A model generated the notes under the pieces. The model made no database searches. It saw only the letters and a list, made by a program, of their open reading frames with translations, and was not told where the DNA came from. The position numbers and the translations under genes are program-made. 64,000 bases of DNA, taken from the IMG/VR virus record IMGVR_UViG_3300037541_000451, positions 13,730 to 77,729 of that record; one strand, 5' to 3'. This stretch comes from a virus. Lineage: Duplodnaviria; Caudoviricetes. Below are positions 8,324-63,468 of the stretch, one piece after another; the first letter of the stretch is position 1; each line of letters starts with the position of its first letter.

Positions 8324-9707
8324 TTAGCCGACTCCATACCAGCTAAAATCATTTGAAAAACCATCTGGTATTTTCTTTAGGATATCATCTCTATTTAAAA
8401 TATCAGATTCCTTAAGTACCTTTCCACCTACACGTGACTTTCCTGGAATAGGTATTAACCCTAACTCAATTGCTTCATTTAAATATTTATCATACAGTTC
8501 TTTCGAGAGGCCTCTCGCGCGCATTTCTTCTAGAGTTAAAACAATTACATTATTTTTAAGCATTTCAGCATATAGCTGTCTCAAGCCTTTTCTGGCTTCA
8601 ACCATGTCAGATGCATTCGCGAAGAAAGCATCGTGAATAGTAGAAGTTGGAATTTTATTTTCTTTACCCCATAAATGAAATCTTTTTACAATCACAGCAT
8701 CATTAGAATGGTTTCCGTTAACGGCATAAGCTGTTCTAGCTTTACCTATATCAGCAATATCATTAATCTTTCCAGACTTATTTATAACTTGTTGCCACCA
8801 AGTTGCTTCTGTTTTCTGAGGTATTTGTAAGATATTTGTAGTCCAGTTTCCATATTTGTCCTTGTAAATTAGTTTTTCTTCGAATGTTTGTGTGAAGTTC
8901 TGCTCAATTGTTTTGCCATCAAAGTTTACCCAAGGTACATTAGTCCAACTCTTAGGTAGCTTGTTAGCATATAGCACTTCAAATTCTGTAATAGTCTTTA
9001 ATTCTAAAAACTCTGTTTTTAAATACTTAGCACCTACTCGTCTTGTTTCGGGAGTTTCTACACCATAAATGATTTCACTAAGAGTCCCATTAGGCTTCCA
9101 AAAACCAAACCTTTTTAATATCTTTTCACTAAGTGGCTCACCAGCTTTTAAGCCAAAAAGTTTGCTAACACTATCAGGTAAAACATAACCTTTCTTTTTG
9201 GTGCCTAAAAGCTTAATTTTGCTTATTGTTTTCCAATCAAAATCACTATTTGATGGTTTTGCATTGGCTAAATAATCTTGTGCTAATCTACCGAAGTATC
9301 TGGTAAAATCCTTTAAAATTGGAACTTGTTCACCAAGATACTCACTCATTATTTTTGCGATAGCTTTGAAGTCCTCTGGAGTAATTACTTTATCATAAGA
9401 TTTAGTCATTTTTTCAACAAAGTCACGAGTCTTAGGATCTAAGAAATAAAGTTGTTCTAAGATGTCATCTCCGGGGTCTAAACCTTTATTAAAGATATCT
9501 TTTACATTTTGTCTTAATTGCCGTAATTCTTCTGCTGTTTCTTCGTCAAACTTTTCGTATCTTGCTATTCTAGCAGATATTTCATTTAAAACTTGATCTC
9601 TTTCTGATGCTTTTACTACAAGAACATTTTCTTGTTTGTCAAGTATTTTTGCAAGTTTACCTTCAACATTTAATGCGCCTGTTCTTTCACCAGCGCCATA
9701 GAACGTC
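8324..9707 (-). CDS. MuF-RNA polymerase fusion, exon 2 (motif B end, motif C)
   Basis: Open frame G ACG TTC TAT GGC (TFYG...) runs into ORF 8324..9409; NHSNDA...STIHDAF matches T7 motif C; ends WYGVG. Confidence 0.92.
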
Positions 9708-10571
9708 CATTAAAGATAGGAGTAGCCTTGATCACCACGTTTAATACGTTTAGTGATAGTAGAATGATTAATGCCAAGCATTCTACCGGCTTCACGCGTT
9801 GATTCAAATATGCCAAACGGAGTGGAAACTGCTTTTCGTAAATGATGTGCGTTTCTTCCATCTGCCTCTTTACCTTGAATTACTTCATCTTTCCAGTAAT
9901 AACCTTTATGTAATATACTCTTGCTACCAGCTTTTCTAGAAATGACTGCTTTAACAACTTTATGTGCTTTTGCCGCAGCCGCAACAGTCGGGAATTCACC
10001 TAAAGGAGTAATTACAGCTCTTGCTAGTAATGAGTTATCACCACTAACAGCTTCTTTAGCTAATTGATACATTAATGGTGATAGTTTAACGCCATCTCTA
10101 GAGCACATTGTTGCATATGCTACTTTTAAACCTTTTACTTCTGGGAAAGCTTTCATTAATAACCAATGAGCAAGTAAGTGACATCTCGCGTTCAGATAAA
10201 TTAAGTTTGATGAATCGTCACCGCCATCCATACATTTTGGAATAATATGATGACGCTCATAATAACTTTTTAATGGCTTTAGTTGGAAGCCGTGTTTTTC
10301 AATTAAAGCCAAATAATGCTTTTCGTAATCCATTTTAACTCCTAATGTATATTACTATACAGATCAGACTATATCTTACGTCGTCACCTTTTCAGGATAG
10401 TACGTCACCGCGCTTCGGAATTAGCATAATTCCTACGAACTTCATCATCTGGTCTAGATGGTATGTTCTAGTCGTTGCACCTTCAAAGGTATCCCTACCT
10501 AAGCTTGGCTCAGGATTGCCCTTTAAGAAGGGTTTCCCTGAATTCACGGTGTTTATACATGGCAACATTCT
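9708..10571 (-). mobile_element. Group I self-splicing intron (864 nt) with HNH ORF in the P9 region
   Basis: P1 ACAUGGU/GCCAUGU with U.G at the 5' splice site; P10 AGAAUGUU/GACGUUCU; P3 CACCGUG/CGCGGUG; core elements AAUUCAGGGAA, AAUCCUGAGC, GUGCAACGACUA, AAGAUAUAGUC; P9 GUAUA-GUAA-UAUAC; terminal G at 9708. Confidence 0.93.
9710..10333 (-). CDS. Intron-encoded HNH homing endonuclease with two C-terminal NUMOD1/HTH-like repeats
   Basis: ERHHIIPKCMDG..SNLIYL..RCHLLAH; repeats TPLGEFPTVAAAAKAH and TPFGIFESTREAGRML. Confidence 0.9.
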   Translation of the reverse strand: MDYEKHYLALIEKHGFQLKPLKSYYERHHIIPKCMDGGDDSSNLIYLNARCHLLAHWLLMKAFPEVKGLKVAYATMCSRDGVKLSPLMYQLAKEAVSGDNSLLARAVITPLGEFPTVAAAAKAHKVVKAVISRKAGSKSILHKGYYWKDEVIQGKEADGRNAHHLRKAVSTPFGIFESTREAGRMLGINHSTITKRIKRGDQGYSYL

Positions 10572-13500
10572 ACCATGTTTTGAGCTTTAGCAGCTTTTCG
10601 TAAATCTTTTTCCGAAAGTCCTAATTTTTGATTCAAAAGTCTAAATCTAGGATCGTTGTAAGTTGCAGCTGCGATTTCGTCGTAAAGTCTTTTCTTTTGA
10701 TTGGTTGGAATGACATTTGACAGTTCCGCCAATTGTTTATTTCTAGTTGTTAAAGCAATAATCTGAGCACCAGATGAAGAAGCATCTTGCTCGAGTGCTA
10801 ATGAAATATCATAATCTTTAAGTCTAGCAAGAGAGTTTCTGCTATAAGAGCCTTCCAGGTAATTATCAATTTTGGCAGTTTCTAGAGCTAATCTTAAGAA
10901 TTTATTAAGATCTTCTCCATCGATTTTTTGAAAAATCTCTGATTCTAAAATAGCTCTAATGTCATTAGGCTTACTTTTAAGCATATGATTTCCAAGTTTT
11001 ATCATTTCTGGACGCCATTTTGCTGCAATTTTTTGTCTTCCAGTTAAAGTCAATGAGTTATAGTTACCTTCAAAGTAATCACTTAGTCCACCTAAAAAAG
11101 ATCCAATTTGATCTTGCAAATTATAAAAACCTTCTTCACTAAATTTACGTGAAATTTCAGTATTTAAAAATGGTCTAAAAGTTTCACCTGATTGAGGACC
11201 AATTAAACCACGATCATATATTCTAGCCCGATGGTCTATAAACGGATGGTTGCTAAAAGCTTTATTTTCGGCTGTAAGCCACTCCATAGCTTTAATCCGT
11301 TCATATGAGTCACCTCTAGAAGCCATATATTTACGATATTCATTTAAGTCATTATACTTCTTAGCCTGACCTTTATCGTCCTCAAAATATAAAATCTTTT
11401 TTACAAAATTAAGATAATCTTTATCAATCTTATATTTACTTTTAGCTGCCCAATTTAAAGCCTCCACAAAGTCTTTATCAATAAATTCTTCTGGAAAATC
11501 ACTGAAACTAGAAGTCGATGTTATTGGTATTCTAGTGTCTTCGTAACCTAAAATACCACGATCGATAAAATACGTTTTATAACCTTCTCTAAACACTAAT
11601 CTATTTTTGTCTTCAGTTACAGAAACACGTAATCCTAATTCAACTTTTCTTACTAATTTAGCGTATTCTTGTATTCTTGGATCTACAATTCGAATATTAT
11701 AAGATAATGTATCATAATATGGCCCAAAATAAGCACCACTCATCATACTTTTCATTCTTCTTTTTTGAACACCAAAAGTTTCAATTTCAAAGAACTTTTT
11801 AACGTTCTTAGCCTCTAAAAGACTCATCCCTAGCTCGTACCATTTACGTCTATTACCATTTATATTAGCAAGATTATATAAATCACGTCCTAAAGCAACA
11901 GCAAATTGATCGCGATCTGGGCTATCAGCAAGGCTTAGCCTGTGAGCAAACTTTAAATAAAATTGTTGTAGATCTCTGTCAGAGACTCTGTTTCGAATTA
12001 TTAAAGGAATTTTGTAATCGAAAACATTGCGTAATTCATTAGCAATTCCAGGGGCTATTTTGTCTTCCCATCTGTTTTTCTTTAAAATATTTTCAATAAA
12101 TTCGTCATGTAATTCTTGCAGTTGAGTGCTTCCCAAAACAGGATCTATGTAATTATCTTGTAAAAGCTTTTTAAGAAAATCAGAGTCTTTTCGCAGCTGT
12201 GTTTCTACGAAATCAGAAACGTTCATAACATCAAACTTGATTTGGCCTTGAACAACTGCTTTAAAGTTAGACCAAATTTGATTATTAGATCTGTATCTGC
12301 CAAAAATGATTCTTAAGTTATCAGCAACTACGGCACGTTCGTTTATACTCATACGATCTGCTAAAGATTCAACAATATCTTTAATAAAGGCTTTATCTCT
12401 ATCTAATAGTTTTTCACTTTCATCAATGAGTCTAATATTATTTGCTAAAACAGCTGGATTTGGTTGATACAAACGCACATCTTCGTATCTACCAGTTATA
12501 GGGTTAAATTTGAGTTGGTCCTCACGAGGAGGACTAGCTAGAACTCTATTTTTTACACCTCTTTTTACATTTAATAGAGTACCTCTATAGTTGGTCAAAG
12601 ACAATGTTCCATTAAGCTCACCAGATTGTAATAAATAATAATCTATTAAGCGTTTCTTTAATTCATCATTTCCAATAAAATCATCCGGTGTTGATGCACC
12701 TAGCTGTAATGCATCTAACTTTTCTTTAGCTAAAGCAAACTTTTTAGTGTCATTTGGTAAGGTGTATCCACTATCACTTAAAGCTCTGAGCTCCTTGATT
12801 CCAACAGATGCACCGTCTGGTGCTGTAAACCTATCTACAGTAAGCTCTCCGCTACGAAGGAGTTCAACCTTTTGATAATCACCAAGATGTTTTAATTGGA
12901 TCTCTTTGGATTGTCTGCTTAACCATGTATTATAAGACTCTCTTAAAGGTGTCTGACCGTCATAATATACAATCTGTTCTTTAGTCAAGTTTTCAATATT
13001 GCGTTTGCGGACTTGAGCTGCACCTTCTAATTTAGAGATATCATTCCAGTTCTTAAAAACAGGTATTGTTGTAGATCTACAATGAAAGTGCGCAGGTGGT
13101 AAGTGTTTTCTATCATCTATCGGATAAATATTTCCATCACGATGTGCACATAAAGGAGTGGTTCTAGAATCTAAAACAGCTACATATTGCCAGCCTTGTA
13201 AAGCTTTTTCGTTAGCTTTATAGACTTCTTGATCTGTTTGTGCAGTAACGGATGTAACTGCTGTTACAACTAAAGCTCTAGACTGAGATCTGGTAATGCT
13301 GTGAATATTATTCTTACGAACATCTAAAGCAATTTCATCAATTGTTTTATTATCTGCAATACCTTTTCTAATTACTGCTTCTAGTCTCTTTCTTTCACTT
13401 TCACCAACTCCACCCCAACCTTGTAACAAAGTTCTATCGTTAAAAAGCGGTCTTTCTAAAACAATTTCTTCAGCAACTCTTTTGGCAGGTCGTTCTGCTC

Positions 13501-13816
13501 TCCAAATCTTACCCATAGATGTTTCTATGGTTTGATAGGTATAAGAGAGCTGATCTGATACTAAGTCTAGTAAAGATCTTTTTGAAATGCTATAAGCTTC
13601 TCTATAAGTTTTTTGTAGTTCTTGATCAATAGCTTCACGAAGTTTTTCAAAGCCTTTTTGAGATAAACTTGCTTCTCTTATTAGCTTATCCACTCTTACT
13701 TCGTGGCCGTCAATTACAAGTGATACTTTGTTATTTAATCTTTTTTCGTACAAGCGGATCATTGCCGCTCGATCAATGGTTCTATCATATATGTCTGTAT
13801 TCGCATTGTTAGCCAT
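10572..13816 (-). CDS. MuF (SPP1 gp7-like minor head) domain fused to T7-family RNA polymerase, exon 1; spliced product 1542 aa
   Basis: MuF motif WQYVAVLDSRTTPLC..RDG...PPAHFHCRST; RNAP motifs DHRARIY, EQDASSSGAQ (A), RKAAKAQNMV|TFYG (B). Confidence 0.92.
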
Positions 13817-14105: not shown

Positions 14106-14795
14106 TTAATCGCCCCACATGCGTTTACGAATTTTTTCAGCCGTTTGTTTAACATCTGAACCACTTTGATTAATTAGATTTTTACTATAAGATCTAATAT
14201 CGCTGACTTTTTCATAGTCTCTAGCTTGCTTAACAATTGCATCTTCGTTAGCCTTAGCTTTTGTTGCAACATTAATCTTATTAGCGATAGAATCTTGTTT
14301 AATTGTTTTTTCGTAAATTCTAGAATCGATTTCTCTTCGCAAAGCACTGTTGGTACGCTCAGCTTCATTAATTTTTCTTTTACTGTTTTTGTTAAGAATT
14401 GCATCAGCAGCCAAAAAAGTCATTGCTGCACCAATTGCAGCAGGAGGCGATATTACTGACATGGGCGCTGTCATAATTACCCCATCTTTTACATAAGATT
14501 TTAATTCCTTATCTTTATAATTTGAAATTAAATCCTCATTTACAATATTTTTGATTTTTACTCTATTCAATTGATTAAGCTCATCACGAGTTTTATTAAG
14601 CTCTTTAGAATCAGATTCAATGTTTCGGTTATAAAGCGTAGAAAACGCCTTTGAAAAAGCAGCTTTCTGATTCAATTTTTGCTGTTTTTCTCTAGTTGCG
14701 AAATAACCACCAATACTATAACGGTATCCAGGCGAAGAACCATCTTTTGTGTATTGGTTTACACCTTCTGGATTATTTGTTTTTCCGGTTGCCAT
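14106..14795 (-). CDS. Candidate internal/ejected virion protein A
   Basis: N-terminal [16 protein letters not shown] shared with neighbour; one hydrophobic segment plus coiled coils. Confidence 0.6.
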
Positions 14796-14847
14796 TATTA
14801 CTCCTTAATTTGGTTATAATCTAGTAAGCGTAAATTAAACAATTTAT

Positions 14848-15414
14848 TTAAGTTTGCTTAAACTGCCTTTGATGGCCTGTCGCTTTTCTAACAGCTTCTT
14901 CCTCTCTGTCAATCTTGTAACCTAAATATCCACCAGTAACGGCACCGCCCACAGTATTTATGCCTATTTTGAGTGCAGGATTCATCTTAGCAACCATCTG
15001 AGCAGATTTGAATACAAGAGCTCCAATGCCGGCTCCCATCGCAGCTGTTGGAATACCTAAAGATGCAGCACCTATTGCTTTTCCCTTAGGAGTAGAACCA
15101 ATTGATGCGCCTGATGTACCGCCCGCAATTGCACCTGCAGCTCCATAGAGTTTTGCTGCATTCGAAGTATTTTTTACCTTATCTAGAAAAATTCGAGTAG
15201 TAGCATTGCCTATAACACCGCTTGCCGCGCCTATAGCTGCTCCGGCCGCAGCATATTTAACGGTTTTATCGACTGCTTCCCAATTTTCTTTAGTTCTTTC
15301 TTTTGCACTTGCAAATGCGCCTCCAACTCTTGTTTTAGCAGCTTCGAATGTAGATTTAGGCTTGCCAGTGTATTGATTTATACCTTCTGGGTTGTTAGTT
15401 TTACCAGTTGCCAT
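14848..15414 (-). CDS. Candidate internal/ejected virion protein B (glycine-zipper hydrophobic segments)
   Basis: N-terminal [16 protein letters not shown]; repeated AAAGAAIGA/GAIAGG/GAVTGG segments. Confidence 0.6.
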   Translation of the reverse strand: MATGKTNNPEGINQYTGKPKSTFEAAKTRVGGAFASAKERTKENWEAVDKTVKYAAAGAAIGAASGVIGNATTRIFLDKVKNTSNAAKLYGAAGAIAGGTSGASIGSTPKGKAIGAASLGIPTAAMGAGIGALVFKSAQMVAKMNPALKIGINTVGGAVTGGYLGYKIDREEEAVRKATGHQRQFKQT

Positions 15415-40805: not shown

Positions 40806-40882
40806 TGGTCTGCCCAAAGGGACTCGAACCCCTAACCTACTCCTTAGAAGGGAGTTGCTCTATCCAATTGAGCTATGGGCAG
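40806..40882 (-). tRNA. tRNA-Arg(UCU)
   Basis: Acceptor CTGCCCA/TGGGCAG, anticodon loop CT-TCT-AA, GTTCGA, encoded CCA. Confidence 0.95.
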
Positions 40883-40897
40883 ATATATTAATTTTTA

Positions 40898-41167
40898 TTA
40901 AATTTCACGAGTATCTTTAGTTCTTGCTTTAATAAATTTTAAAATATCACCTCGATGTACTTTTCCTAAATACTGAAACTTTTTTCTACTAGGCCAGTAA
41001 TCAAGACGTCTTTCATTAAGCATTCGCGACCAATGATACTCGGTATGTTTTGTCCATTTACCATCATCGTCTTGAATAGCTTGTTCTAAGAATTTCTTTC
41101 TATCGGCATCGAACTTTTCCTTGGAGTGTTCTTTCAAGATATCCCAAATAGGATCTTTATCATTCAT
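40898..41167 (-). CDS. Hypothetical protein
   Basis: HWSR..RLDYWPSRKKFQY motif. Confidence 0.65.
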   Translation of the reverse strand: MNDKDPIWDILKEHSKEKFDADRKKFLEQAIQDDDGKWTKHTEYHWSRMLNERRLDYWPSRKKFQYLGKVHRGDILKFIKARTKDTREI

Positions 41168-41504
41168 GTACAGAAACCTCTCGAATATGCCAATTAATTA
41201 TACTCCAGTAGGATTCTAAAGATTGATACATTCCACTATATTGCTTACAATGTTCTTGGCTTAATGTTATCAAAATTTCCTGAGCATCTTCTTTACTTGT
41301 AAGAACAGCTGTCTTGACAAGATCATTAGTACAAATTAAGTATACTGTTTTAGTTTTATTCTGAGATGAAAAATTTTCAACCTTTCTTTCTAGATTGCGA
41401 ACGCGATGTTCAAGCTTGTTAAAAACAGATAAAGGAACTTTTTGTTCCATAGACTGCACATGCTCAATATATTCTTTAGTAGGAACTAAGCGAGTCATTA
41501 CCAT
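41160..41504 (-). CDS. Hypothetical protein (paralog domain of 38597..38959)
   Basis: YLICTNDLVKTAVLT...W.I. Confidence 0.65.
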   Translation of the reverse strand: MVMTRLVPTKEYIEHVQSMEQKVPLSVFNKLEHRVRNLERKVENFSSQNKTKTVYLICTNDLVKTAVLTSKEDAQEILITLSQEHCKQYSGMYQSLESYWSIINWHIREVSVHE

Positions 41505-41773
41505 TTCACCTTATCAGCCCAATATGCTGCACTCATTTTGCCCTTAGCAATGTTCTCAGCGTGGCGAGCTTTAAAAGATTCTCTACGAGCTTTGTAAGCT
41601 TCTGATTCACCTTCTTTAGGCGGTGAGCCTTTCACACCTTGAGCACCAAATCTGATAAGCTTTACTGCTTCACCTTCCTTGGCTAATACAGCATGGCTTT
41701 TTGTTGGATGATCTGGAGTTCTTTTAGGATCGTTATAACCCTCAAAAGTTTCTCCTCGATATGTGATACTCAT
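41498..41773 (-). CDS. DUF6321-like basic protein
   Basis: KLIRFGAQG...RRESFKARH...SAAYWADKVKW. Confidence 0.7.
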   Translation of the reverse strand: MSITYRGETFEGYNDPKRTPDHPTKSHAVLAKEGEAVKLIRFGAQGVKGSPPKEGESEAYKARRESFKARHAENIAKGKMSAAYWADKVKW

Positions 41774-42075
41774 AAAAACTCCTCACACTCAATTACTTTA
41801 ATACCTGCTTCTTTGATTGCTAACAAACAAATACTGCAAGGTTTCATCAACTTTAATTCAGTACGATTTTGTTTTTCAATTCTAATCTTATGAATAGGTT
41901 TACCTTTTGCACGAATTATCGCCAATATCTCTGCATGAAGATATATACGATAGTCTTGGTCTGTTTTAGACGCATGCCTTGCTTGAATAGGATGCGTTTT
42001 AGTGTATGAATTCTTAGCAATAGAAATCACTCTACCACGCTTATCGTAAGTAGTAGCTCTTATATCAGACTTCAT
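41770..42075 (-). CDS. Zn-dependent deaminase-fold protein (CDA/dCMP deaminase-like)
   Basis: LHAE...KPCSIC motif. Confidence 0.75.
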   Translation of the reverse strand: MKSDIRATTYDKRGRVISIAKNSYTKTHPIQARHASKTDQDYRIYLHAEILAIIRAKGKPIHKIRIEKQNRTELKLMKPCSICLLAIKEAGIKVIECEEFL

Positions 42076-42583
42076 TGGCTTGGTCTTTAGCGAGCTTATA
42101 AAGTTTGTTAAATCGATTTGACAGGACTCTGATATTAGTCAAAGCAACCTTTGAATTTTCTGTATCATAAAAAGCCCAACGACCTGTTTCTAATTCGAAT
42201 TCAACAGGAATTGCATTTGGTGATTTGTAATAAAAGAATTTAATTCGAAAGGTTTTGGCAAGTGTGTGATCTACAGAAATAGGGATAGAATTTACAATAT
42301 CTTGAAATTCCAAAACTGTTATCAGCTTAGAATTCCATACCACTTCATTCTTTGAATCTAGAATTTCGAAACAAACACGCAGTCTATCTTTAAAAAGTTC
42401 TTGAACTGTAGATTCTTCCGGCTTCCGTAAATTTACAATAGTCAGTTCACCCGTATTCATATCTACAGCGAACGATCGGCCAGATGTAATTACATCGTGA
42501 ACCATATCACTTTGAAATAGTTTCTTTACGGGCTTTACAATCATGAAAACACGATTGTTAATAGTCACAAACTTTCGTTCCAT
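42065..42583 (-). CDS. Hypothetical protein
   Basis: 172 aa open frame. Confidence 0.65.
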   Translation of the reverse strand: MERKFVTINNRVFMIVKPVKKLFQSDMVHDVITSGRSFAVDMNTGELTIVNLRKPEESTVQELFKDRLRVCFEILDSKNEVVWNSKLITVLEFQDIVNSIPISVDHTLAKTFRIKFFYYKSPNAIPVEFELETGRWAFYDTENSKVALTNIRVLSNRFNKLYKLAKDQANEV

Positions 42584-42618
42584 TTTAAGCTTTCTAAGAT
42601 AAAATTATTTGCGTTTAA

Positions 42619-42744
42619 AACCGTACATATAAGTCAGCTGCCTTGTACTGTTTTGATAAGTCTTGTTGGCCAGACGACTTATCCTCAATCACGACTTGGT
42701 CCTTCGTCGCGAGCTTACAAAGCAGCTGAATTATATGTACGGTT
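42619..42744 (-). ncRNA. Unassigned structured RNA candidate (126 nt)
   Basis: 23-bp closing stem with one mismatch (42619-42641/42722-42744) enclosing two internal hairpins; begins 7 nt after the tRNA-Leu CCA. Confidence 0.6.
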
Positions 42745-42751
42745 AAATAAA

Positions 42752-42840
42752 TGGTGCCCGGAGCGGGGATCGAACCCGCACGACGTTTTATTGCCGACGG
42801 ATTTTAAGTCCGTTGTGTCTACCGATTTCACCATCCGGGC
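42752..42840 (-). tRNA. tRNA-Leu(UAA)
   Basis: GCCCGGA/TCCGGGC, long variable arm, loop CT-TAA-AA, CCA. Confidence 0.95.
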
Positions 42841-42848
42841 TAAGTTAA

Positions 42849-43220
42849 TTAATCGTTAATGATATATTCTTGAAATTCTTCTGGAATTATTACATTTGAA
42901 GGTGATCCTGCAAACATCGGACCAATTTGATCCGGAGTAAAACCAGCTAAACCACAGCCAATGGGAGTTAGTTTAAATTTGAGATGACTTCTTGACTTAG
43001 CAAATTCTTTGAATTTTTCAACATGTTGCGCAATTTCGTCTAACGTTAAACTTTTATACGGCGTTGATTTCGTAGGAATAGCATAAGAAGCACCTTGAAG
43101 TCCTTCTCCAACGCCTAACTTAGCTCCATATCTTTCCAAAGCTGTTTTAGCTGATCCAGCTCCGTGAATACCTTGACGATTACTTCCAAATACAAAAATC
43201 GTATCGGTAAGTTTTTTCAT
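42849..43220 (-). CDS. Conserved phage protein (A1S_2505-like)
   Basis: IFVFGSN..GIHGAG.A...G.GEGLQG.SYAIPTK...TPIGCGLAG. Confidence 0.7.
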   Translation of the reverse strand: MKKLTDTIFVFGSNRQGIHGAGSAKTALERYGAKLGVGEGLQGASYAIPTKSTPYKSLTLDEIAQHVEKFKEFAKSRSHLKFKLTPIGCGLAGFTPDQIGPMFAGSPSNVIIPEEFQEYIIND

Positions 43221-43458
43221 TTAGGTTGTAGCTAGCTCCAACTCGAGTTTGTCAAGTGTTTCCTTAAGCTCTTCTCGCGATTTTAAGAAAAGGTCGTAAT
43301 TATGCCCCTTGAAATCAGTTGCAGCGACAGCCATTGCATCAGCTAATTCTAGGATATGTTGTTTTTCTTGTTTTAGTTGACCTGAATCCATATTATCTTC
43401 CTTTATAGCTGAGATATATCAGCCACGCGTGCTACCCATTCAGCTTATAAAGGTAAAT

Positions 43459-43650
43459 TCAGTAGTCTACTTGAAAATCATCCATATCATCTTTTAGACA
43501 ACTGTTACAAATACTATACTTATTTGTAATAGGGAGTTTAGCACCACAGACACAAATCATATTTAATTGTCTGCCGGTCTCTGAATCGTAGTCTGGGCAA
43601 CAGCCCAACTCGTGTCCGCAACAAGGAAAATCTTCACATCTAGCGGCCAT
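43459..43650 (-). CDS. Small Cys-rich hypothetical protein
   Basis: CEDFPCCGH...C.CG...C..C. Confidence 0.6.
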   Translation of the reverse strand: MAARCEDFPCCGHELGCCPDYDSETGRQLNMICVCGAKLPITNKYSICNSCLKDDMDDFQVDY

Positions 43651-43687
43651 AAGTGTCCTTAAATAAATTGTTTAAAAATCTATCATA

Positions 43688-43763
43688 TGGCTCCACGACC
43701 TGGATTCGAACCAGGGACCAACAAATTAACAGTCTGCTGCTCTACCGACTGAGCTATCGTGGA
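43688..43763 (-). tRNA. tRNA-Asn(GUU)
   Basis: TCCACGA/TCGTGGA, loop CT-GTT-AA, CCA. Confidence 0.95.
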
Positions 43764-43939
43764 ACAGTTTCTAATAGTGCGCCTACAATTGTTCTTTCAA
43801 TCTCAGCAAAAATTTTATGTTTGTTTACATTATCCTTAAGATTGTTTTCAAGTCTGAGACAAATGCATTCTGAATACATTATAGCTTTTCGATATAATAT
43901 ATAGTCTAATGTCTTAAGTTGTGAATGTAGATCTTGCAT
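43754..43939 (-). CDS. Hypothetical protein between tRNAs
   Basis: Fills the spacer; last codons overlap the tRNA-Asn 5' end. Confidence 0.4.
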   Translation of the reverse strand: MQDLHSQLKTLDYILYRKAIMYSECICLRLENNLKDNVNKHKIFAEIERTIVGALLETVPR

Positions 43940-43945
43940 AGTTAA

Positions 43946-44021
43946 TGGTGCCGCTTATCTGACTCGAACAGATGACCTACCGATTACAAATCGGTTGCTC
44001 TACCAACTGAGCTAAAGCGGC
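43946..44021 (-). tRNA. tRNA-Thr(UGU)
   Basis: GCCGCTT/AAGCGGC, loop TT-TGT-AA, CCA. Confidence 0.95.
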
Positions 44022-44228
44022 TTAATTTGTTCTCTCAATCTTCCAAAAAGTTGTATTTATAGATTCGTTAACTTCTAATGCAAGAACATAATTTTTCCAA
44101 AACCACCGATTATCCATCGTAGAACCTCTAACGGTATCTTTACAAGTCAACCAGTCCGGTGCATTAATTTCATTAAATTCCAAGATTTTGTTAGAGAAGT
44201 ATAGATGGGTTGCTTTAAATTCTTTCAT
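44022..44228 (-). CDS. Hypothetical protein
   Basis: Stop abuts the tRNA-Thr 5' end. Confidence 0.6.
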   Translation of the reverse strand: MKEFKATHLYFSNKILEFNEINAPDWLTCKDTVRGSTMDNRWFWKNYVLALEVNESINTTFWKIERTN

Positions 44229-44232
44229 ACTT

Positions 44233-44586
44233 TTAAGTCAACGAAATCCGAAGCTTCCGTTGAATTGCAGAAAGCCTTTTATAAGCATTTTGTAGCTTGT
44301 CACGCTTTGAAAAGAATCGATTTTTCTTAGTATTCGAATAGAACTTAATTGCTTCAGATCTTTCTGAATTATATTCTTCAAGATCAAGTGTCATTAAATT
44401 TAATTGTCCACGAAGCACAGTACGTAGATATTGTGCTTCTTGCTGAGTTAAACTTATTAGAACTTCTGATGATAGTTTTGACTCATTCGTTTCAGGTGAA
44501 TTACGAAAGTTGTTAGCATCAGTAAAAGTCATTTTTTCAATCCATTTATTAAACCAATCGTTTAAAGTATTCATATTAACTCCCAT
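44233..44586 (-). CDS. Hypothetical protein
   Basis: Packed, same strand. Confidence 0.55.
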   Translation of the reverse strand: MGVNMNTLNDWFNKWIEKMTFTDANNFRNSPETNESKLSSEVLISLTQQEAQYLRTVLRGQLNLMTLDLEEYNSERSEAIKFYSNTKKNRFFSKRDKLQNAYKRLSAIQRKLRISLT

Positions 44587-44776
44587 TATAAACTCTATCA
44601 GAAATATCTACACCATGAAAATCGGTATAAAACTCTTCATATCTACCTTCGCTACTGCATGAACGCCTATGTGGACAATCTACATGAGAGCATTCCCATT
44701 GAGCAGTAGTTTCAATGTTACTTTTATGGTGAGTCTTTTTCTGACATATAACACAAATAGATTTTTCAGGCTTCAT
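44576..44776 (-). CDS. Small Zn-finger-like protein
   Basis: C..C...C..VDC..R..C. Confidence 0.55.
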   Translation of the reverse strand: MKPEKSICVICQKKTHHKSNIETTAQWECSHVDCPHRRSCSSEGRYEEFYTDFHGVDISDRVYNGS

Positions 44777-44796
44777 TAAAGACTCCTGTAAAAGAA

Positions 44797-45069
44797 TTAT
44801 TTGTTAAAGCCATTTCTAAGAATTTTTCGAATGCTTTTTTGAATTTTTTCTTTTCTTTTTATTTCTTCTGTTAAATCACGCTCATATTGTCTATAGTAAT
44901 TTAGTAACTTAAAAGAATTTTGAACAGAGCTGTCATCTTTGTTTATATAGTCACATTTATGATAATAGTATTTTGCCTTATCTCTGGCGCGCTCCTTTTC
45001 AATATGGAGCTCATTTAATTGATCTTTTAAGATAGACTCGAAAAATTGCAAAGAGGAATTGTCTAGCAT
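44797..45069 (-). CDS. Hypothetical coiled-coil protein
   Basis: AGGAG SD. Confidence 0.6.
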   Translation of the reverse strand: MLDNSSLQFFESILKDQLNELHIEKERARDKAKYYYHKCDYINKDDSSVQNSFKLLNYYRQYERDLTEEIKRKEKIQKSIRKILRNGFNK

Positions 45070-45081
45070 TTTCGCTCCTAA

Positions 45082-45119
45082 TGGTAGGCCGGGTCGGATT
45101 CGAACCGACGGCTAAACGA
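45082..45119 (-). pseudogene. 3' half of a disrupted tRNA
   Basis: TCGTT-TAGCC-GTCGG TTCGAAT CCGAC-CCGGCCT-A-CCA. Confidence 0.85.
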
Positions 45120-45196
45120 TGGTGAGACCGATGGGACTCGAACCCATAACCCGCATCTTATGAGGATGACGCTCTAACCGATTGAGCTACAGTCTC
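45120..45196 (-). tRNA. tRNA with CAU anticodon (Met elongator-like; Ile2 not excluded)
   Basis: GAGACTG/CGGTCTC, loop CT-CAT-AA, CCA. Confidence 0.9.
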
Positions 45197-62788: not shown

Positions 62789-63468
62789 TCAACAAAAGCA
62801 ATATTCACTTTCTAAGATTAATTTTATATCTAGATTTCCTAATTTTACATTTGTAAAGTCACCTCCAATGTCTTTCATAATCGATTGTAGTGGATCTGAT
62901 TCGTATAATTTAAGAAAAGTTGTTCGAAGTAATACAAACAATTTTGACATATCTGCCAATAAACATCCGAAAGAATCGTGTATAGTAGTTACTGGAAAAT
63001 CAGCTTCAGAAACTACCATCGATAAATGTGCGGCATCTAAGCTATGAATTATATTTGGGCTTGCACCTTGCGATTGTTTACCTTTAGATGGAACTGGTTC
63101 CTCAATAAAGCATATTGCTAACTGCAAAGTGTTTTCATAATAGCCAGTATTATTTCTTTCACCCTTTGGTGGTCCGTATTGAACCCATATCTTTTTTACA
63201 GTACCTTCTGTGTAGTTTTGAACAACTGGAAAATTCGTGACAGGGACAGTCCACGAAAGAAACCTATCATCTTTTTCAGCCTTTTTACCAGCATCTTCAA
63301 AGACTTTGAGAAGCTGCATTGGACGTTCTAAAGAGATACGACAATTGTTAAATGTCTCTCTACCTAAATAAGCACCCCATTTGTGTTCCATAAACATCAA
63401 CAAGTCTATATTATGCTTACGGGCATCGTCAATAACTTGCTGACCTAAACCATATGCAGTTCCGCCAT
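62789..63468 (-). CDS. T7-family RNA polymerase (second enzyme), 3' exon
   Basis: (T)AT GGC GGA ACT = YGGT in frame with ORF 62789..63403; SPNIIHSLDAAHL...TIHDSFG, terminal YCFC. Confidence 0.92.

Follow-up and report, generated by a model that had tools for sequence, protein, structure and literature searches.

Introduction

Group I introns with HNH endonuclease genes are known in the td, nrd, DNA polymerase, terminase and lysin genes of phages. The T4 introns in td, nrdB and nrdD (sunY) have a core of the IA2 type, the hallmark of which is the presence of helices P7.1 and P7.2 between P7 and P3′. In sunY the open reading frame (ORF) is located downstream of the core, and the remote 3′ splice site is reportedly brought back to the core by a long-range pairing. 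Translation of the td endonuclease, I-TevI, is said to be held down by sequestration of its ribosome-binding site. HNH-carrying group I introns have also been described in the multisubunit RNA polymerase (RNAP) genes of jumbo phages (AR9/PBS1: PMC12350094; PhiPA3 gp210: bioRxiv 10.1101/2023.09.30.560319), and the endonuclease of the PhiPA3 gp210 intron was shown to act against the polymerase gene of a co-infecting relative (bioRxiv 10.1101/2023.09.30.560319). We describe here a group I intron of a caudoviricete phage that interrupts the gene for a predicted T7-family, single-subunit RNAP. It is located in a stretch of 64,000 nucleotides (nt) of the IMG/VR virus record IMGVR_UViG_3300037541_000451 (positions 13,730 to 77,729), to be referred to as the window.

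The ribozyme in the window belongs to the same family as those of the DNA polymerase introns of Bastille, CAM003 and Hoody T (in blastn, a 115-nt part of the core is 73% identical). As in the I-HmuI-type introns of SPO1 and Bastille, the endonuclease is an HNH enzyme with a NUMOD-type DNA-binding tail, and the intron interrupts a catalytic motif in a polymerase with a family-A-like fold, with a patchy distribution among relatives. However, the host gene of those introns encodes a DNA polymerase rather than an RNA polymerase, and in the window the ORF is placed on the 3′ side of P9 and stops only 2 nt short of the splice site. Among named proteins, the nuclease half is most closely related to the free-standing HNH enzymes of the MobE type in T-even phages. 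The IA2-type core with P7.1 and P7.2 is shared with the T4 introns, and the downstream ORF and remote 3′ splice site are shared with sunY. In comparison, the host gene and the endonuclease are different from those of T4, and here the ribosome-binding site is predicted to pair with the end of the endonuclease's own frame.

The introns of the jumbo phages (phiKZ gp55/gp56, PhiPA3 gp210, AR9/PBS1) also interrupt a catalytic motif of a phage-encoded, virion-associated RNAP, and in those genes, as in the one studied here, the number of introns varies among relatives and the insertion sites are clustered. On the other hand, the jumbo-phage enzymes are two-barrel β/β′ polymerases, with a fold unrelated to that of the T7 family, and the phages studied here are not jumbo phages but have siphovirus-like genomes of about 55–80 kb.

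The closest described locus is that of EBPR siphovirus 1 (gp47, gp48 and gp49; JF412302; L001:4046-9419), which has an orthologous intron at the identical site. The identity to the window is 59.6% for exon 1 (gp47), 64.8% for exon 2 (gp49), 71.5% for the HNH protein (gp48) and 79% for the core. The same gene is uninterrupted in DSS3_VP1 of the Naomviridae (gp108; L002:2992-7383), with 1463 residues and the annotation 'head morphogenesis'. Neither the intron nor an RNA polymerase is annotated in the GenBank records of these two phages. The paper on DSS3_VP1 never mentions an RNA polymerase (PMC8323127), and a survey of virion-delivered proteins placed N4-like polymerases only in N4-like phages (PMC5512222). 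The element itself is ordinary in kind, and its host gene is of a type for which no published intron was found. This literature search, for introns in single-subunit, T7-like or virion RNAP genes, covered subscription journals poorly and is a weak negative. A megablast search with the whole gene against known phages gave nothing, and its relatives were found only by protein-level or distant searches.

The intron and its splice junction

Three ORFs follow one another on the minus strand of the window, with 1087 (13816..10553), 207 (10333..9710) and 361 residues (9409..8324). The Rfam model RF00028 matches this strand at 10621..10345 over its full length (model positions 1–253 of 253), with a score of 75.8 bits (gathering score, 50) and an E value of 1.8e-17. 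A complete group I intron at 9708–10571 had been read from the DNA in an earlier note, which named an Infernal search with the Rfam group I models as a check. It is confirmed by this match, by the covariation among 15 introns, and by colinear homologues that have no intron. The interrupted gene is a phage RNA polymerase gene, and the positions of its parts are given in Table 1.

Table 1. Features of the interrupted polymerase gene and its intron, in window coordinates. Strands of a helix are given 5′ to 3′; SD, Shine-Dalgarno sequence.
Feature	Position	Strand	Details
Exon 1, MuF-RNA polymerase gene	13816..10572	minus	1081 codons and GU of a Val codon
Group I intron	10571..9708	minus	864 nt; Rfam match, covariation, intron-free homologues
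Ribozyme core	10571..~10346	minus	HNH gene 3′ of P9; terminal G at 9708
P1	exon ACAUGGU 10578..10572 with guide GCCAUGU 10563..10557	minus	7 bp
P10	exon 2 GACGUUCU 9707..9700 with intron AGAAUGUU 10571..10564	minus	8 bp
Catalytic core, overall	10551..10367	minus	
P3	CACCGUG 10551..10545 with CGCGGUG 10412..10406	minus	
P4, P5, P6, P6a	10541..10479	minus	
P7	GACUA 10473..10469 with UAGUC 10371..10367	minus	
P7.1, P7.1a, P7.2	10468..10417	minus	
P8	10405..10402 with 10381..10378	minus	
P9 hairpin	10361..10346	minus	UGUAUA-GUAA-UAUACA, GNRA loop
UAGGAGU, SD of the HNH gene and 5′ strand of the long-range helix	10344..10338	minus	
HNH-NUMOD1 homing endonuclease gene	10333..9710	minus	207 residues and stop
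ACUCCUA, 3′ strand of the SD helix	9723..9717	minus	in the Tyr-Ser-Tyr codons that end the HNH gene
Exon 2	9707..8324	minus	third base of the Val codon, 460 codons and stop

The 5′ exon ends with ...AACAUGGU at 10572. The intron begins with AGAAUGUUGCCAUGU and finishes with ...UUUAAUG at 9708, and exon 2 begins with GACGUUCUAUGGC. Joining 13816..10572 to 9707..8324 produces a single frame of 1542 residues that reads ...RKAAKAQNMVTFYGAG... across the junction. The corresponding protein is ...KAQNMV/TFYGAG and the predicted spliced RNA is ...AAC AUG GU/G ACG UUC UAU GGC (with the slash indicating the junction), and the sequence ATG GTG ACG TTC TAT GGC (MVTFYG), which the earlier note expected splicing to restore, is therefore part of an in-frame product. 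Without splicing, the host frame continues into the intron for six codons and stops at the UAA at 10555..10553. This stop is conserved, and it is positioned just past P1, upstream of the rest of the core.

The gene of DSS3_VP1 aligns across the junction free of gaps (KGAKAANMVTFYGAG), and about 30 of the 48 relative loci in IMG/VR are uninterrupted at this point. In one of them, L004, the protein has exactly 1542 residues and is 80–86% identical. The identical site is occupied by 15 distinct introns, from IMG/VR and EBPR siphovirus 1. All of them are preceded by AACAUGGU and have a G at the 3′ end, and the exon resumes as N-ACN-UUY-UAY-GG. Moreover, no ATG, GTG or TTG is present among the first 99 codons of exon 2, a conserved stretch that could therefore be translated only after splicing. 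The stop codon of the HNH gene (UAA 9712..9710) is followed only by U9709 and G9708, 2 nt from the terminal G as had been noted earlier. The split of the gene into three ORFs in automated annotation, which was likewise anticipated, is found in the GenBank record of EBPR siphovirus 1, where they are named 'head protein', 'HNH endonuclease' and 'hypothetical protein'.

The interrupted polymerase gene

The N-terminal region of the host protein matches the Pfam family Phage_Mu_F (PF04233) at residues 145–251 (E 7e-14) and PHROG 241 (E 2.9e-64). Further along exon 1, residues 815–1053 match positions 341–553 of PHROG 414 ('RNA polymerase'), and exon 2 matches positions 654–789 of the same profile as well as Pfam RNA_pol. 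The two exons hence match consecutive parts of a single RNA polymerase profile. When a profile of the relatives is compared with the Protein Data Bank, T7 RNAP ranks first, over four colinear stretches.

The hhalign alignment to T7 RNAP (98.8% probability, E 1e-16) pairs Arg1073, Lys1077, Met1081, Val1082, Tyr1085 and Gly1086 with Arg627, Lys631, Met635, Thr636, Tyr639 and Gly640 of T7. The K-x7-YG segment is placed on Lys631, Tyr639 and Gly640, and motifs A and C are aligned to the segments LAFDGSCSG and IHDSF of T7, respectively. The sequence motifs of the T7 family are present: DxRGR, motif A (D), motif B (R..K..YG) and motif C (HD). Exon 2 carries the YG of motif B, an NGNHSND motif, and motif C (IHDAF). 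A structure model of the C-terminal 903 residues of the intron-free homologue L004 (pLDDT 82.4, pTM 0.83) is matched by T7 and mitochondrial RNAPs over its whole length in Foldseek (E 1.9e-16). Judged by these profiles and the model, the host protein combines, in one polypeptide, a MuF head domain and a T7-family single-subunit RNA polymerase.

The alignment and the model together place the intron within the codon equivalent to that of Thr636 in T7, in the O-helix (motif B), between the equivalents of Lys631 and Tyr639. Motif B of a single-subunit RNAP as the insertion site, also named in the earlier note, is thus well supported. The gene is located between the portal gene and the genes for the scaffold and the major head protein. 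This position in the head module fits a polymerase that is carried in the capsid, and the enzyme is probably virion-borne. In the 64-kb window, the interrupted gene is the only in-frame copy of the MuF-RNA polymerase.

Two ORFs of 229 and 188 residues lie at 14106–15414 (minus strand), between the portal and MuF-polymerase genes, and have no PHROG match. Elsewhere in the window, Rfam identifies a cluster of five tRNA genes at 40809–45196 (minus strand), with scores of 60–74 bits.

Fold of the ribozyme core

The 15 aligned cores were scored for P1, P3–P9, P7.1, P7.1a and P7.2, including the P3/P7 pseudoknot. Standard pairing is observed in 96.3% of the cells, and 40 of the 63 pairs show compensatory changes, on both sides. 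The observed fold support was reached by none of 500 shuffles, and pairing falls to 30–44% in a control in which the partners are slid by 1–3 columns. RNAalifold independently recovered most of the same helices. The features that had been read by eye in the window, P1 with its U.G pair, P10, P3, P7 and the GNRA loop of P9, are all present.

Compensatory changes are found in 10 of the 12 helices, the other two being P1 and P7. P9 shows them at all six of its pairs, P7.1 at four of four, P7.1a at four of five and P7.2 at six of six. The architecture is IA2-like, as judged solely by the presence of P7.1 and P7.2. P7 is invariant, and P1 varies only through a mismatch: all seven of its positions are paired in 12 of the 15 introns, and a single U-U mismatch is present in the other 3. 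The U.G pair at the 5′ splice site is formed by U10572 and G10563.

P10 covaries between the synonymous third base of the Thr codon in exon 2 and position 5 of the intron, with A or G opposite U in nine introns and U opposite A in five. The one exception is the intron of L054, where this position and the next are mismatched.

The long-range helix near the 3′ splice site

The earlier note drew a pairing between CAUUAGG, in the SD region of the HNH gene, and UUUAAUG at the 3′ end of the intron. This pairing can be drawn with 7 bp in the window but is not kept in the relatives, where 3–7 bp are scattered. It was rejected as a conserved interaction for this reason; in addition, the terminal G itself would be engaged in it. 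Conservation and covariation are seen instead in a helix of UAGGAGU with ACUCCUA (Table 1).

In each of the 11 introns that encode an HNH protein of this type, this SD helix has 6–10 contiguous base pairs and is located 6–10 nt before the terminal G (9 nt in the window). The pair GGAG/CUCC is present in seven introns and GGAA/UUCC in four. This double change affects the fourth base of the SD and the synonymous wobble base of a Tyr codon, and pairing is maintained.

In 8 of 11 relatives, the UGA stop codon of the endonuclease straddles the splice site (UG/A). Examples are L001:8034-8036 and the 3′ ends of the introns of L022, L033, L051, L052, L055, L057, L061 and L066. As the base from exon 2 completes this UGA, the ORF in the excised intron of such relatives would have no stop codon. 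The UAA of the window is located two bases earlier.

With the SD helix formed, the 600-nt endonuclease gene would be closed off as a loop and the 3′ splice site would be returned to the core. The helix would also hide the ribosome-binding site in the folded RNA, and would be disrupted by a ribosome that reaches the last codons of the gene. Translation of the endonuclease and completed folding or splicing may be mutually exclusive in each RNA molecule. The hiding of the ribosome-binding site and its release by the ribosome are drawn here by analogy with the td and sunY introns of T4. The UG/A stop codons of the relatives and the early stop of the host frame just past P1 agree with such a coupling.

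The endonuclease and the distribution of the intron

The endonuclease has an HNH domain (residues 24–55) and a NUMOD1 domain (residues 174–195) in Pfam, and matches PHROG 655 ('homing endonuclease') with an E value of 6.5e-29. Its nuclease half is 40–47% identical to the MobE-type HNH enzymes of T-even phages. A phmmer search against the sequences in the Protein Data Bank gave only generic matches to the HNH motif, and I-HmuI was not among them.

The endonuclease ORF has its full length in 11 introns, with 70–79% identity to the copy in the window. This is generally above the identity of the host polymerases in the same pairs (59–72%). The nearest polymerase relatives of the window, at 76–86% identity, have no intron, whereas in L065, whose polymerase is only about 30% identical, the same site holds an intron of 864 nt that includes an HNH gene. 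Introns with no ORF are also found at this site (223, 261 and 342 nt). Overall, the distribution at the site is patchy, with 15 distinct intron-plus alleles and about 30 intron-minus loci. These comparisons are indirect evidence that the intron spreads horizontally by homing, in which cleavage by the endonuclease is inferred.

The first base of exon 2 (9707 in the window) is a purine in 15 of 15 intron-plus alleles and in 6 of 21 intron-minus alleles (Fisher p 1.4e-5 for the 36 alleles, uncorrected for relatedness). This base is part of P10, and it supplies the last letter of the endonuclease's stop codon in most relatives. The purine bias is a further indirect sign of spread by homing, and may arise from its role in P10, from the stop codon, from co-conversion, or from target immunity.

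Other insertions in the polymerase gene

The polymerase gene is an insertion hot spot, and the relatives have introns at at least five other points of it. One of these, site B, is also in motif B, 9 nt upstream, after AAG GCU (equivalent to 10581/10580 in the window). It is occupied in L010:1761-2619, L011, L030:1355-1625, L150, L175 and L192. The ribozyme at site B is homologous, with its guide changed to GGGNCUU (Rfam scores of 89 and 68.5 bits).

The site-B introns of L150, L175 and L192 end in G, and those of L010/L011 and L030 have an A before exon 2 (CAA AAY AUG). Shifted pairs of splice sites were considered for the introns that end in A, and each of them breaks the frame or deletes conserved residues. 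No G-terminated, in-frame alternative was found for L010/L011 and L030. A metagenome scan with the site-B pattern gave 42 hits, which were mostly chance matches in unrelated genes, and one new informative 3′ end, that of L192.

Other insertions are found in L029, L018, L033/L034, L039, L054 and L177, at the equivalents of about residues 988–991, 1045, 1107 and 1414–1421 of the spliced protein. L029 has a group I intron after residue 1045 (Rfam 68 bits) and a further insertion near residue 990. A second intron in L054 lies near the NGNHSND motif (62 bits), and L033 has a 694-nt insertion after residue 1107. In L018 (about 145 additional residues) and L039 (about 214), the insertions are in frame, elsewhere in the gene, and are possibly inteins.

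Discussion

The observations are very probably explained by a functional, mobile, IA2-like group I intron, inserted within the codon equivalent to that of Thr636 of T7 in the gene for a MuF-fused, T7-family RNAP. After transcription, the core would fold and P1 would present the U.G pair at ...AACAUGGU/A to attack by guanosine. P10 and the terminal G9708 would then align exon 2, and ligation of the exons would give ...KAQNMVTFYGAG... and the 1542-residue polymerase. The predicted spliced RNA is ...GCUCAAAACAUGGU joined to GACGUUCUAUGGC. These steps follow the known chemistry of group I introns. The HNH-NUMOD1 enzyme would cut or nick intron-free motif-B alleles in co-infecting relatives, and repair of the cut allele would copy the intron into it (homing).

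Several points weigh against this explanation or parts of it. Splicing, the activity of the endonuclease, and homing are all deduced from sequence. P1 and P7 yield no covariation evidence, as neither shows compensatory variation. The orthologous intron of EBPR siphovirus 1 scores 40.5 bits, under the Rfam gathering score, and was found only with an E-value threshold. A putative second T7-family RNAP has also been noted at 62789–63468. Finally, the strands of the SD helix are a Shine-Dalgarno sequence and Tyr-Ser-Tyr codons, each of which is otherwise constrained, and the covariation of this helix may reflect no more than a single evolutionary event.

Were the element a decayed intron or a free-standing endonuclease gene that does not splice, the polymerase would be dead or would be assembled from two polypeptides. 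The three separate ORFs in automated annotation and in the GenBank record of EBPR siphovirus 1 would agree with such an arrangement, as would the introns at the neighboring site that appear to have no terminal G, and splicing in the window is itself a deduction. However, all the helices of the core are intact, with compensatory changes across the 15 introns, and the terminal G, the U.G pair and P10 are all present. In addition, the 99 conserved codons at the start of exon 2, including the invariant YG, have no start codon and would be untranslatable unless spliced. A non-splicing element is accordingly judged very unlikely. The in-frame insertions of L018 and L039, which could be inteins, raise the question of whether the insertion in motif B is also an intein, or a group II intron, instead of a group I intron. 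These can be ruled out with near certainty, because the host frame stops six codons into the insertion and Rfam gives RF00028 and no other intron family; the group I pairings also covary.

The SD helix deserves a more guarded reading than the intron itself. It could be a by-product of coding, with no role in folding or translation, even though the intron is real. The SD sequence AGGAG is complementary to UCC (Ser) and UAY (Tyr) codons, and the single covarying position is changed in only 4 of the 11 introns, which are perhaps close relatives. Moreover, the intron of L026, with a different HNH lineage, and the ORF-less introns instead have a hairpin that forms locally, with a short tail. On the other hand, the helix is contiguous in every one of the 11 introns despite their differing flanks, the double change at the Tyr wobble base and the fourth SD base preserves pairing, and an ORF located 3′ of P9 leaves the 3′ splice site remote from the core, so that some long-range pairing is needed to bring the two together. 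We consider a coding by-product somewhat improbable, although it keeps an appreciable share of the weight. Should the helix have a role, one tentative possibility, doubtful at present, is that each RNA is either translated or spliced, but not both, and that, with at least six intron sites in the catalytic motifs of this gene across the phage group, the endonucleases are used against the polymerase genes of co-infecting relatives in the manner of PhiPA3 gp210.

With this intron, the single-subunit RNA polymerase joins the short list of phage genes that are favored by group I introns. As expected from homing theory, the insertion is in the helix that is most strongly conserved in the enzyme. The ORF-less and ORF-bearing versions, the two sites 9 nt apart and the further sites in the same gene provide material for the study of intron movement between sites. 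The pairing of the SD with the 3′ end, if true, would be a simple case for the coupling of translation and splicing.

The intron also conceals a complete T7-type RNA polymerase from gene callers. In the two nearest named phages, the public labels for this polymerase are 'head morphogenesis', 'head protein' and 'hypothetical protein'. Recognition of the intron is required before it becomes apparent that a widespread group of uncultured siphophages, together with the Naomviridae, encode a polymerase of their own.

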